Assembly: GCA_937862735.1 (NCBI GenBank)
Contig: CALMDH010000243.1
Location: forward strand, 1,423 to 65,422
Direction of reading: 5' to 3'
Source of the DNA: an uncultured Gammaproteobacteria bacterium
Lineage (GTDB): Bacteria; Pseudomonadota; Gammaproteobacteria; Chromatiales; Chromatiaceae
Length of the DNA: 64,000 nt
The position numbers and the translations under genes were made by a program. Of the stretch, positions 1 through 4,683 are shown in pieces. Within the stretch, counting starts at the first letter, position 1, and each line of letters opens with the position of its first letter. Below the pieces are notes generated by a model. It was given only the letters and a program-made list of their open reading frames with translations, had not been told where the DNA came from and made no database searches.

Positions 1-359
1 AGATCGGGATGCGTGAGCCTTGACGGGATTTCACTTGCCACCCACGCCTTGAGCTGGGATGGCTCTCCGTCTCCGAAGCCTTGCGTCAGCCAGGACAGAA
101 CCCGTTCAGGCGGAAAGTCAAAGAGCGGCTTGAAGTCTCCACCAAGGACATAGCACTTGGCCTTGGTGTCGTAATCGATGTTGCCAGGTGCCAGCTCCTT
201 GTAGATCGCCAGGTCACGCGTGGCGGCGGCCGACTGGATTCCAAACCGCGACACTAGGTCCTGGCGGCGGATATCTCCGATGAAGCGCACGCGCAGCTCC
301 ACGAAGGCAAGGCGATCGCGCTGCGGCTGGGTAAGGTCGTCAAGCTGTTCGTCAGACAT
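1..359 (-). CDS. BrxR/CapW-like winged-HTH (WYL-family) transcriptional regulator, N-terminal part; gene runs off the left edge
   Basis: Hand translation of the minus strand from the ATG (complement of 357-359): MSDEQLDDLTQPQRDRLAFVELRVRFIGDIRRQDLVSRFGIQSAAATRDLAIYKELAPGNIDYDTKAKCYVLGGDFKPLF..., open to position 1. It is absent from the ORF track because the window truncates it. The pattern matches the wHTH N-terminus of BrxR-type regulators as I remember them. The WYL domain itself would lie outside the window. Confidence 0.6.
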   Translation of the reverse strand, partial: MSDEQLDDLTQPQRDRLAFVELRVRFIGDIRRQDLVSRFGIQSAAATRDLAIYKELAPGNIDYDTKAKCYVLGGDFKPLFDFPPERVLSWLTQGFGDGEPSQLKAWVASEIPSRLTHPD

Positions 360-612
360 CCTTGGGGCTCATGCGGGTTAACGGATGCTTGTGATGATAG
401 TTGCGGGTAGTATATGGCACGCACTACAATCCGTCTATGCGATTCCCAGAGCGCCCATGTCAGCATTCTTATGATTATGACTACGCAGCAGCAGGCGGAT
501 CGCTCTCTATAGAAAAGGAGCGAACCTGCATGAGCGGGAACCTTAGGGCCCAGCCAGGACTCCCCGACAAGGACTGGCATCGCGTTGAATCAGCGAAAAG
601 TCAGGAGGGAGC
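360..612. promoter_or_regulatory. Divergent control region between the regulator gene and the NurA/HerA cassette
   Basis: A 253-nt intergenic stretch, more A/T-rich than its flanks. It contains a tandem TATGAT/TATGAC element (TTCTTATGATTATGACTAC near 467-485) and a good SD (AGGAGGGAGC) directly before the ATG at 613. No experimentally defined site can be asserted. Confidence 0.35.
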
Positions 613-1755
613 ATGATTGACCCGGCAAGCCAGGCCCAACTGAAAGAGGCCATCGCAGACTGCATCGGAACCGATCAAGGGGTGCTGGATGCTCTGCGAG
701 AAGAAATTCAGCCGTTGAAGAGTGCCACGCGTCGAATCCAGCCGCGCGCCACGACGTCGATCTCACTGGTCGGCACAGATGGGGGAAACAACCAGCTTCA
801 GTTCGACCCCTTCCTGATTCAGTTGGTCCGAGTCGTAGATAGCAGCAACAACGAGTACTGCCTTGAAGCAGTTTCGCCCACGACACCGGTGCAGAAACTC
901 AACCAACGCCAGTTCGATGAGGACGGGACGCCCAAAACAGCACTGGGTGAAATGATGTTTTTCCTGGGAGTAGACAGCCTGCAGGCGCTCTCCCACATGA
1001 TCCGACCGACGGACAGCGGAAAGCCGGTTTCTCCCAGCTGGGTTCAGGTTTATCGGGAGCTGGTCGAGTGGGCGATCCTATTTAAGATCCTCGATAAAGA
1101 TTACGGCACTGACACGTTGATCATCTGCGACGGCCTTCTCCGAAGCAAGGTGTTCGCCAAAGACCTATTCCAGCGTCTGCTCCAAGGAATGAAGGAGCGT
1201 ATCGACAAACAATGGAGCAACAGCCGGCGGCGGGTTTATCTCGCGGGTGTAGCCAAGCACAGCAAGGTGCTTTCTCGGTATCGCTTGGCCATGGCGCTGG
1301 AAGGCGTCCTTCAGACTGATTACCCCGCCTACGTCGAGGTACCCCGCGAAGTGGAGGAAAAGGCATACGTCTGGTCGGAGTTCGCACGAGGCGATGACCG
1401 AACTGGCGAGGGCGGCGAAATCAACAAGTTTGTCGGCGGCAAGATGTTCCTGGTGAAGTTTGGCTCCCACCGCCGCGATCCCGTATGGCCAATCGACATC
1501 TTTGTTCCACAAGTCAGCGAGTCCCAGGCAATTCTCGGGTCAATGCTTGCGGATGCGATCAACGGTTTTCCCGTTCCCCATTACCCACGCTGCCTGCAAA
1601 AGGCGCATGAAAATGCGGCGTTGGTCGATTTCGACTTCGATATTTTGCAGGACTTCATCTACGAGGGTGTGCGTTCGAGTCTCGGTGGCGACGCGGGCAC
1701 ATTGGATGCGTTTCAGCTGCAGGACGCCGATCCTGCGCAGCGTCGGTACGGATAA
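613..1755 (+). CDS. NurA-domain nuclease
   Basis: 380-aa ORF. It has SLVGTDGGNNQLQFDP and LIICDGLLRS acidic motifs spaced as in NurA 5'-3' nucleases. It is followed 11 nt later by a HerA-type ATPase gene, the canonical NurA-HerA pairing. Strong SD upstream. Confidence 0.7.
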   Translation: MIDPASQAQLKEAIADCIGTDQGVLDALREEIQPLKSATRRIQPRATTSISLVGTDGGNNQLQFDPFLIQLVRVVDSSNNEYCLEAVSPTTPVQKLNQRQFDEDGTPKTALGEMMFFLGVDSLQALSHMIRPTDSGKPVSPSWVQVYRELVEWAILFKILDKDYGTDTLIICDGLLRSKVFAKDLFQRLLQGMKERIDKQWSNSRRRVYLAGVAKHSKVLSRYRLAMALEGVLQTDYPAYVEVPREVEEKAYVWSEFARGDDRTGEGGEINKFVGGKMFLVKFGSHRRDPVWPIDIFVPQVSESQAILGSMLADAINGFPVPHYPRCLQKAHENAALVDFDFDILQDFIYEGVRSSLGGDAGTLDAFQLQDADPAQRRYG

Positions 1756-3881: not shown

Positions 3882-3936
3882 ATGCTGAAATTCGACGCTT
3901 GTGGGGCAGTGAGTGATGACCCAGGAGAAATGAGAG

Positions 3937-4683
3937 ATGGCCAAACCTGTCGTCATCGGCTCGCGGAGCTTCCGAACCCAGAAAAGCGCACTGGACCATT
4001 ACAAGGCGCTGCTACACCGGTACCAGGACGGGGATCGCATCTCAGACCCAGGGGACCACGCCGACCTCGTGGCCCTCATCGAACGTTATGACCCGATTCT
4101 TGACCAGGTTGGCGAGCCGGCGAAGGGTTGTGGCCAGATCGGCCACTTCGAACGCCGCCTGAACACCGGAACGGGCTGGAGCAACTCCGGCTTTTGGGTG
4201 GTGCGCCAGGACGGGTCCGCCACGGACTTTTCGTACATCTGGGCCGTGAAAGGACTGCCAGGGGATCGGTCGAAGGACTTCTATGGCGCATGCCGGGAGG
4301 CTGTCGCACTGGATCTCGTTCTGGCCAAGAAGCGCGCCTTTGCGGAACATGGAGACGCTCATGGGCTGGTTGCGTGCGAACTTACTGGCGTGATGGTCAG
4401 CATCGACGACGCCCATCTGGATCATGCTTGGCCGAACTTCTCGCACATCGTCAGTGGCTTCCGGGCGGCCAGGGGCTGGTCAAGTGACATCCCGGACGGA
4501 ATCGTATCCGCCCCGGCTGACGGGCAGACGACGCCCACATTCGTCGACAAGGCAGTCGCGGATGCCTTCCGGGACTACCACCACAACCAGGCGATGCTGC
4601 GAATCCTCTCCAAGTCGGCCAACCTCCAGACCGCCAGCCAAGCTCGAAGACCGAAGATTGCACGCCCAGTGCGGTTGGCTTGA
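3937..4683 (+). CDS. DUF3223-domain protein with a C-terminal His-Me (HNH-like) candidate nuclease region
   Basis: 248 aa. The N-terminal half (FRTQKSALDHYKALLHRY...DHADLVALIERY...GCGQIGHFERR...GFWVVRQDGSATDFSY) fits the DUF3223 pattern. The C-terminal half (CELTG...DDAHLDHAWPNFSHIV...FRDYHHNQAMLRILSKSAN) resembles an HNH/His-Me finger. The nuclease assignment is inference. Confidence 0.55.
   Translation: MAKPVVIGSRSFRTQKSALDHYKALLHRYQDGDRISDPGDHADLVALIERYDPILDQVGEPAKGCGQIGHFERRLNTGTGWSNSGFWVVRQDGSATDFSYIWAVKGLPGDRSKDFYGACREAVALDLVLAKKRAFAEHGDAHGLVACELTGVMVSIDDAHLDHAWPNFSHIVSGFRAARGWSSDIPDGIVSAPADGQTTPTFVDKAVADAFRDYHHNQAMLRILSKSANLQTASQARRPKIARPVRLA

Follow-up and report, generated by a model that had tools for sequence, protein, structure and literature searches.

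A TdpAB-like nuclease-translocase pair and a HamC-family gene at the probable edge of a mobile defence island in an uncultured Chromatiaceae bacterium

The TdpAB complex is reportedly the restriction part of the Tdp system, and is said to be inhibited by the mark of that system. Tdp is a phosphorothioate-based restriction-modification (R-M) system whose mark is made by tdpC alone, according to PMC12914056 (citing An et al. 2025), and Tdp structures are present in the PDB (8WET, 8WFD and 8Y1K). Here we analyse a 64,000-nucleotide stretch of DNA from an uncultured Chromatiaceae bacterium (contig CALMDH010000243.1, positions 1,423 to 65,422), called the window below. The window begins with part of a brxR gene, and to its right lie three genes encoding a NurA-like protein, a HerA-like ATPase and a DUF3223 protein of the HamC family. 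We consider it rather probable that a mobile defence island has its right-hand edge in this block, and that in it a cargo slot holds a TdpAB-like pair without its usual methylase and, as a separate unit, a HamC-type gene.

Like Tdp (TdpABC), the locus encodes a HerA-type ATPase together with a NurA-type nuclease, the best solved relatives of the two proteins are TdpA and TdpB, and most relatives of the pair have a DNA-modification gene in the same operon. Unlike Tdp, the third gene is DUF3223 here and a methyltransferase in relatives (no sequence search aimed at TdpC was made), and the nuclease gene precedes the ATPase gene. Moreover, the HerA-like protein has 704 amino acids compared with 586 for TdpA, with about 150 C-terminal residues unmatched, and the hosts are mostly mesophilic Proteobacteria plus many other phyla rather than thermophiles. 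The HerA-NurA proteins of archaea and Deinococcus (PMC12977600) belong to the same two superfamilies, are encoded by adjacent genes and share the presumed architecture of a hexameric translocase with a dimeric nuclease. However, their sequence similarity to the window's pair is weak (2.8e-10 to archaeal HerA, 4D2I, and no NurA from the PDB), and the pair lies in a mobile defence-island setting with no Mre11 or Rad50 neighbours.

Sir2-HerA and DUF4297-HerA (PMC11472057, PMC11291478) likewise combine a HerA-family ATPase with an effector in a defence operon, but the effector here is of the NurA family. Hachiman type II (HamA-HamB-HamC; PMC8565338) has a full-length HamC-family protein, as does this locus, whereas the upstream proteins of the locus have no HamA (DUF1837) or HamB helicase matches in PADLOC or Pfam. 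The role of HamC is unknown even within Hachiman (PMC8565338, PMC11914072). Islands regulated by BrxR/WYL proteins (PMC9122601) have in common with this one a brxR homologue, a promoter and inverted repeat upstream of it, and mosaic defence content. In contrast to the published cases, where the genes are downstream of brxR, the cassette here is divergent from brxR.

A first-pass annotation, made from the letters of the window and their open reading frames (ORFs), had proposed an uncharacterised three-gene machine. Because the closest solved complex of the pair is TdpB/TdpA, this proposal does not stand for the core, which is of an already known kind (HerA-NurA, Tdp). What is uncharacterised is the methylase-linked family described below and its methylase-less variant in the BrxR slot. 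Both are absent from PADLOC 2.0, and no paper on a NurA-HerA-methylase or a NurA-HerA-DUF3223 system was found in the literature searched.

The nuclease-translocase pair and its methylase partner

The gene for the predicted NurA-family, TdpB-like nuclease (380 amino acids) occupies positions 613 to 1755, and that for the HerA/FtsK-family, TdpA-like translocase ATPase (704 amino acids) positions 1767 to 3881, both on the plus strand. The gap between them is 11 nucleotides, and a gap of 55 nucleotides separates the HerA-like gene from the co-directional DUF3223 gene; ORFs and gaps are the same as those given in the first-pass annotation. The HerA-like protein matches Pfam DUF87/HerA (1.7e-18, 67.9 bits against a cut-off of 23.2), and a Walker A motif (GFGKSN) and a Walker B-like motif (VVEEA) can be read directly in its sequence, so its earlier description as a HerA/DUF87 ATPase with both motifs holds. 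Its best relative in the PDB is TdpA (8WET_A, 2.8e-22), which outscores archaeal HerA as well as the Sir2- and DUF4297-associated HerAs. PADLOC HerA models match residues ~375-530 (3e-16). Matches to the 'antiphage HerA' models of PADLOC and NCBIfam are partial and far under the curated cut-offs, and NCBIfam HerA repair equivalogs score 41-49 bits, compared with cut-offs of 800-970. The protein is about 120 amino acids longer than TdpA, and its residues ~555-704 are unmatched in the phmmer alignment of the two.

For the NurA-like protein, a profile of 38 diverse family members has one significant match among solved structures, TdpB (PDB 8WET chain G, 9e-13). Ten of these 38 members, whose identities range from 27 to 66%, match Pfam NurA (PF09376; best 6.2e-10), and UniRef labels some homologues 'NurA domain-containing'. 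The same profile retrieves no NurA from the PDB even at E = 10, and a PDB search with the single window sequence returns noise only. Across the family, D56 and E152 reach at least 90% conservation; the window protein also has D173 and H332, which are less conserved. These four residues may correspond to the NurA active site, which is RNase H-like and comprises acidic residues and a His. Because of the TdpB profile match, the rank of TdpA as best PDB match and the Pfam NurA matches of 10 of the 38 relatives, the pair is, as judged from sequence, a TdpAB-like nuclease-translocase module.

A database search with the NurA-like protein finds 3174 homologues. The best 120 of them share 86-96% identity with it and span widely separated lineages, among them Methylothermus, Desulfacinum, Pelomicrobium, Synechococcus, Geothermobacter and Burkholderia. 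When 50%-identity representatives were searched exhaustively with the same protein, 449 clusters were retrieved, and the 90%-identity clusters that hold the window's pair proteins have hundreds of member sequences. Public names for family members are hypothetical, NurA-domain, DUF87 and ATP-binding proteins. A very large unnamed family is thereby connected with TdpAB, a restriction machine whose structure has been solved.

When one genome of each species was scanned for the pair, 80 loci in many phyla were found. When all nearby ORFs across 89 loci were clustered, only three large clusters emerged: HerA (83 loci), NurA (81) and a protein of about 365 amino acids termed MT1 (56); the remaining neighbours are variable. 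The NurA-like and HerA-like genes adjoin in every locus examined, and MT1 is located directly 3' of the HerA-like gene in 52 of the 70 species-level loci having enough sequence (74%). Close to its N-terminus MT1 carries an invariant motif I (DPFCGRGTT), and an invariant SPPY comes later, so that motif I precedes motif IV. The protein matches Pfam N6_N4_Mtase, type II methylases in PADLOC and PDB 2ZIE; an example lies at 13266-14372 of locus L007. By these motifs and matches, MT1 is a predicted SPPY DNA methyltransferase of the N4C/N6A type and the dedicated partner of the pair. Because MT1 directly follows HerA in so many loci, nuclease-translocase-methylase is the dominant architecture, and therefore an R-M-like logic is suggested. 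This implies that NurA-HerA-MT1 is an R-M-like system, as yet without a name, that occurs widely among phyla. The usual logic of the family appears to be methylation-based, not phosphorothioate-based, which makes it a new class of ATP-dependent R-M-like system that can be tested.

The ratio of nonsynonymous to synonymous substitution rates (omega, dN/dS) is about 0.04, and comparisons of the window with other loci give 0.03-0.10, indicating strong purifying selection. Synonymous divergence (dS) is about 0.1 inside the window's clade and more than 1 against methylase-type loci. In the methylase-less, BrxR-linked clade, omega is 0.02-0.06 at dS of about 0.1, except for the NurA gene of L052 (0.10). 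Because omega is low and dS exceeds 1, the roughly 90% amino acid identity across phyla is best explained by very strong constraint combined with horizontal transfer, rather than by recent spread alone. The G+C fraction (GC) of the cassette stays at 0.56-0.61 while that of its hosts spans 0.50-0.65.

The distribution of the pair is patchy: it occurs in more than 10 phyla, its identity ranges from 70 to 99%, and its neighbours change. The first-pass annotation had set a fixed core-genome operon against a defence island, and this patchiness, the variable neighbours and the cassette's own GC point to an island. It had also placed the block in a defence-module setting, which is supported by the company that related loci keep. 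Their neighbours include type I R-M genes, GmrSD, a UvrD-family helicase with a PD-(D/E)XK nuclease domain, sacsin-NOV and SIR2-DUF4020; toxin-antitoxin genes also occur in the flanks. In Synechococcus the pair neighbours a prokaryotic Argonaute (pAgo), an integrase and ParE, and in Methylococcus it neighbours genes like those of type 3 bacteriophage exclusion (BREX). The E. coli genomes searched for the cassette gave no match.

In four Burkholderiales loci (L012-L015, at 6.4-9.9 kb), NurA-HerA is immediately preceded by a sacsin/NOV_C gene of the same orientation, encoding about 1100 amino acids. The N-terminus of its product is Tiamat-like (26-28% identity), beyond this gene comes one for a UvrD-family helicase with a PD-(D/E)XK nuclease domain, and no methylase follows HerA in these loci.

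The HamC-family gene

The third gene (3937-4683, plus strand) encodes a protein of 248 amino acids with an N-terminal DUF3223/DCL domain and a conserved C-terminal domain of unknown fold. The protein matches Pfam DUF3223 (4.8e-10) and no other Pfam family, it matches PDB 2K0M, and it aligns over residues 1-247 to positions 1-244 of the 245 in the PADLOC HamC profile (HamC2|HamC, PDLC00202; 1.7e-83). These matches uphold its earlier identification as a DUF3223 protein. The family has 248 database matches and is named 'DCL family' by NCBI.

The C-terminus had also been described as resembling a His-Me finger. An AlphaFold2 (AF2) model of the whole protein is confident (mean predicted local distance difference test, pLDDT, 92.5), and its structural neighbour, 2K0M, covers the N-terminal domain only. 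The C-terminal domain modelled alone reaches a pLDDT of 89.7; with this model, Foldseek finds no neighbour in the PDB (best E 2.8) and no nuclease. Because the C-terminal domain has neither a PDB neighbour nor a Pfam match despite the confident model, the His-Me finger idea is unsupported. C147, E148, H160, D162, H163, H215, R222 and N229 are invariant or near-invariant in the DUF3223 family, and the HxDH...N pattern among them could possibly represent a divergent metal site.

The DUF3223 gene and the pair also occur apart. In L001-L003 and L005, TmtA of Tiamat (PADLOC E = 0) comes after an identical NurA and a HerA that matches at 100%; in L004 a DUF3223 gene follows such a pair, as in the window. 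In L010, no co-directional gene follows a pair that is 98-99% identical. Conversely, the DUF3223 gene is found without NurA or HerA in Pusillimonas, where it closes a prophage-like block that carries a serine recombinase. Likewise without the pair, it is found about 280 nucleotides downstream of an AAA_5 (McrB-like) gene paired with a gene for 659 amino acids, after Wadjet-like genes (JetD identified by Pfam and JetA-C by eye), after patatin plus SMODS modules and after ADP-ribosylglycohydrolase (ARH) modules.

The NurA-HerA-DUF3223 trio occurs in at least eight loci (the window, L004, L009, L011, L052, L143, L158 and L186). These loci are 89-98% identical as DNA, and because they are near-identical copies of one cassette they represent approximately one evolutionary event and are weak evidence either way. 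The DUF3223 gene is probably an independent or accessory, promiscuous defence gene rather than a dedicated subunit. The proposal that it supplies the third subunit of a NurA-HerA machine is not supported, given the Tiamat gene found after the same pair, the lack of a co-directional gene after a near-identical one, and the MT1 gene found there in 52 of 70 loci. What survives of the proposed three-gene association is that NurA and HerA stay together and occur in islands; the DUF3223 gene, by contrast, is found elsewhere too, and the usual third gene is MT1. HamC appears to move freely as an add-on among many unrelated systems, and this narrows the hypotheses on its role.

The brxR border, the conserved element and the cargo slot

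GC is 0.55-0.57 at bases 1-4000 and 0.64-0.71 over the following 8 kb, which agrees with the earlier remark that the block is poorer in GC than core genes. At its left edge, the window cuts off all but the 5' part of brxR (119 codons, 359-3, minus strand), which encodes a predicted WYL-family repressor. The 119-residue fragment alone has no match in Pfam, PADLOC or NCBIfam. Its sequence is the same (100% identity) as that of residues 1-119 in 297-amino-acid proteins on sibling contigs, which match Pfam WHD_BrxR, WYL (1.6e-12) and BrxR_CTD, and the truncated BrxR/WYL-type regulator of the first-pass annotation is thereby supported.

In four sibling loci (L052, L010, L011 and L143), brxR is followed after 10-14 nucleotides by the co-directional genes hsdM-hsdM-hsdS-hsdR-gmrSD. 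Other sibling loci have BREX type 1 genes 3' of brxR, or a RecQ-like/DprA-like pair recognised by eye. This arrangement is the published BrxR layout, a repressor heading its operon (PMC9122601). About 80 nucleotides beside brxR (360-440, no strand) are conserved at 72-85% identity whatever the cargo, and form the left border of the cargo slot. They include a promoter-like site (437-409, minus strand) and an imperfect inverted repeat (381-393/422-434). By analogy with the published BrxR operator layout (PMC9122601), this segment would be the brxR control region. It is possible that BrxR also controls the divergent cassette through the common intergenic region. The earlier idea of a regulator-controlled cassette is therefore permitted by the shared intergenic region, but in siblings brxR heads its own leftward operon.

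In Lautropia (L033), a genuine tmRNA gene (2230-2593) is located a few kb from the brxR/NurA-HerA block. Because of this proximity, ssrA may be the integration site of the L033 island. The conserved element described below was not found there.

The right border of the slot is a conserved non-coding element of about 205 nucleotides, termed EL (4686-4889, plus strand), which opens with an imperfect palindromic hairpin of about 20 base pairs and ends at ...CCACCCCACCACCA. It has homology (~80-95%) to the sequence that follows DUF3223 or methylase genes in other loci: the element occurs after DUF3223 in sibling loci, after MT1 in Methylococcus-type loci and in three copies in L014. An intrinsic-terminator-like hairpin (4892-4916, plus strand; a 10-base-pair stem with 8 G-C pairs, then TTTTTGTTT) follows the element. 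It is the first candidate terminator after the start of the NurA-like gene, there being none between that gene and the end of the element, and other loci carry different hairpins in its place.

An exact-pattern scan found the element in 98 metagenome stretches and 9 IMG/VR contigs. Overall it is present in 116 loci, often in 2-3 copies per locus (copies occur in the window, L004, L009, L011, L014, L017-L019, L022, L028, L052 and L093-L201). A divergent brxR homologue lies upstream in approximately 33 of the 116. Between brxR and the element lie anything from 189 nucleotides to 9.4 kb, and the shortest case, L131, has an apparently empty slot, in which a brxR homologue of 57% identity is directly beside the element with no gene between. 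Slot contents include NurA-HerA-DUF3223, patatin plus SMODS plus DUF3223, Wadjet-like genes with or without DUF3223, ARH plus a Zn-finger plus an AbiJ-like gene, and Tiamat plus a NERD-helicase. Beyond the element there are often small cassettes, comprising Fic, HipBA, a PIN-like gene (by eye) or AbiE, and in many loci the downstream small cassette ends in a further, more divergent element copy. No description of a conserved non-coding right border to the slot was found in the papers searched.

All copies of the element share ...CCACCCCACC, and homology between loci stops between CACC and ACCA. In terminal copies, such as that of the window, ACCA, locus-specific sequence and a terminator come after this breakpoint. 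Where another cassette follows the element, there is instead a conserved GAGACCCCGCAGGAGTTCGAATC... junction, a motif that occurs only at the 3' end of an element copy. If cassettes circularise, the junction would join ...CCCCACC to GAGACCCCGCAGGAGTTCGAA.

Several identities for the element were considered and set aside. It has no open frame or codon periodicity, as would be expected of a small ORF. RNAalifold, applied to 12 and to 86 sequences, supports only the invariant 5' hairpin and finds no covariation, and Rfam contains no match to the element. Because it is non-coding and has no covarying structure beyond the hairpin, a DNA-level site is likelier than an RNA. It is also not a strict companion of DUF3223 or defence genes, since it follows methylase, AbiJ-like and NERD-helicase genes as well, and on two MOBH plasmids it lies, unannotated, among metabolic genes.

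A tentative reading, possible rather than probable, is that the element is the recombination site of an undescribed cassette platform, in which units of one or more defence or toxin-antitoxin genes plus an element are stacked beside a large BrxR-, BREX- or R-M-type operon, with crossover at a fixed point after CACC. If so, the NurA-HerA(+HamC) block would be one exchangeable cassette of an integron-like immune-gene system. The cassette arrays have no recombinase of their own. Large serine recombinases (Resolvase plus Recombinase plus Zn ribbon) are found beyond terminal element copies or beside a lone DUF3223 gene in L160, L172, L183, L196 and L198, and one of the same class lies at 4236-5645 of L089. 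These proteins, which often have a DUF2924-like partner, are candidate mobilisers, or elements targeting the site. Nine IMG/VR contigs classed as viral (L191-L199) contain the element with brxR, DUF3223 or Tiamat cargo; they are either prophage-adjacent islands called viral, or phages or satellites carrying the slot. The element and its cassette array are the most novel thread of this analysis. The interval from brxR to the element also provides a handle for mining defence genes, because anything between the two is a candidate.

Proposed function and competing explanations

We propose that bases 1 to ~4920 belong to a defence island acquired by horizontal transfer, of which they make up the right-hand end. 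By analogy with its siblings, brxR would point left and head its own operon, which consists of type I R-M genes plus GmrSD in the closest of them. To its right would lie a variable cargo slot bounded by ~360-440 and by the element at 4686-4889, filled in this genome by two separable units, the NurA/HerA pair and the HamC-family gene. The HerA-family ATPase may form a ring that moves double-stranded DNA and feeds it to the NurA-family nuclease, which would degrade it, while the HamC-family DUF3223 gene may be a promiscuous add-on or a stand-alone defence gene. In most relatives, a co-transcribed SPPY methyltransferase would mark self DNA, in parallel to phosphorothioation by TdpC, and in the window's clade this methylase would have been lost. 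Because the clade is without a methylase, self-sparing would have to come from elsewhere. Candidate means are BrxR-dependent repression, neighbouring type I methylases or the requirement for a trigger, and the clade thus poses the question of how a processive nuclease-translocase spares self DNA.

Several observations weigh against this proposal. The NurA-like protein of the window has no match in Pfam (E <= 0.1), NCBIfam or PADLOC, and the TdpB match of its family is limited to profile positions 128-286; the NurA-type nuclease of the first-pass annotation is accordingly supported indirectly, by the 10 of 38 relatives and the TdpB profile match, and by no direct match of the window protein. 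The TdpAB mechanism would be carried over by homology at low identity. A tblastn search of the whole window found no MT1 homologue, and nothing in the window accounts for self-sparing without a methylase. The left part of the island, with the brxR operon, lies outside the window and is drawn from siblings. Finally, the tight spacing of the genes and their co-occurrence in at least eight loci make it possible that DUF3223 is functionally coupled to the pair.

Such coupling would be strongest if the locus were a single BrxR-controlled three-subunit machine in which DUF3223 is an obligatory nuclease-like subunit of the NurA-HerA complex. Co-directional genes with 11- and 55-nucleotide gaps, the lack of a terminator before the end of the element, the recurrence of the trio and the tendency of HamC-type proteins to go with ATPase/nuclease systems (Hachiman II, Wadjet-like genes, the vicinity of AAA_5) are all compatible with such a machine. 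It is nevertheless unlikely, since the same pair is followed by Tiamat and a near-identical one, in L010, by nothing co-directional, a methylase holds the third position in 74% of relatives, and DUF3223 follows patatin plus SMODS or ends a prophage-like block with no HerA present. In addition, the C-terminal domain has no nuclease fold match, and the trio loci amount to about one event. Quite improbable is a methylase-less remnant, in which the pair would be what is left of a NurA-HerA-methylase system that is decaying or has been silenced, and would have no current function. The partner methylase is indeed missing here and across the whole window, and L033 has a truncated TmtA remnant at the same position. 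However, both ORFs of the pair are intact, omega in the methylase-less clade is low at dS of about 0.1, and the 90%-identity clusters are populous.

Two further explanations assign the pair to functions other than defence. It might serve a mobile element by processing or pumping DNA for the transfer or rearrangement of the element-bounded cassette array, given that HerA/FtsK ATPases act in conjugation and packaging elsewhere (PMC10853773), that the slot of the pair is bordered by a repeated, recombination-site-like element, and that this element is also on MOBH plasmids. This is very improbable: most element copies have no NurA or HerA nearby and most NurA-HerA loci have no element, and the regular partner of the pair is a methylase while its closest solved homologue is a restriction complex. 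We give least credence of all to a housekeeping operon for end resection at double-strand breaks, like NurA-HerA of archaea and Deinococcus, that merely lies in low-GC DNA. Although the pairing and gene order are like those of archaeal resection genes (PMC12977600) and strong purifying selection is compatible with a core function, the pair is patchy and its neighbours vary, its GC is independent of the host, and its flanks are R-M, BREX, pAgo and toxin-antitoxin genes. The usual DNA methylase partner and the low scores against the HerA repair equivalogs also argue against housekeeping. The slot reading, with a TdpAB-like pair and a separable HamC-type gene, thus remains the one we favour.

Three minor features of the window were also considered. 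The first-pass annotation had reported tRNA- and transfer-messenger RNA (tmRNA)-like fragments at the end of the block, and this is not borne out by ARAGORN, which finds neither, or by Rfam, which finds nothing at its gathering score. A tmRNA candidate at 4674-4712 scores 15.8 bits against a gathering score of 47 and corresponds to one arm of the element's hairpin. An ORF of 71 amino acids (401-616, plus strand) overlaps the start of the NurA-like gene and appears conserved only where the DNA of the loci is near-identical, and it is probably non-coding rather than a gene. A second low-GC patch spans 23123-30420, with GC falling to 0.57-0.60 at 26-28 kb. It encodes a protein of 1113 amino acids whose sole match is Helicase_C, followed by ORFs of 202 and 809 amino acids without a Pfam family, and it may be another acquired island.

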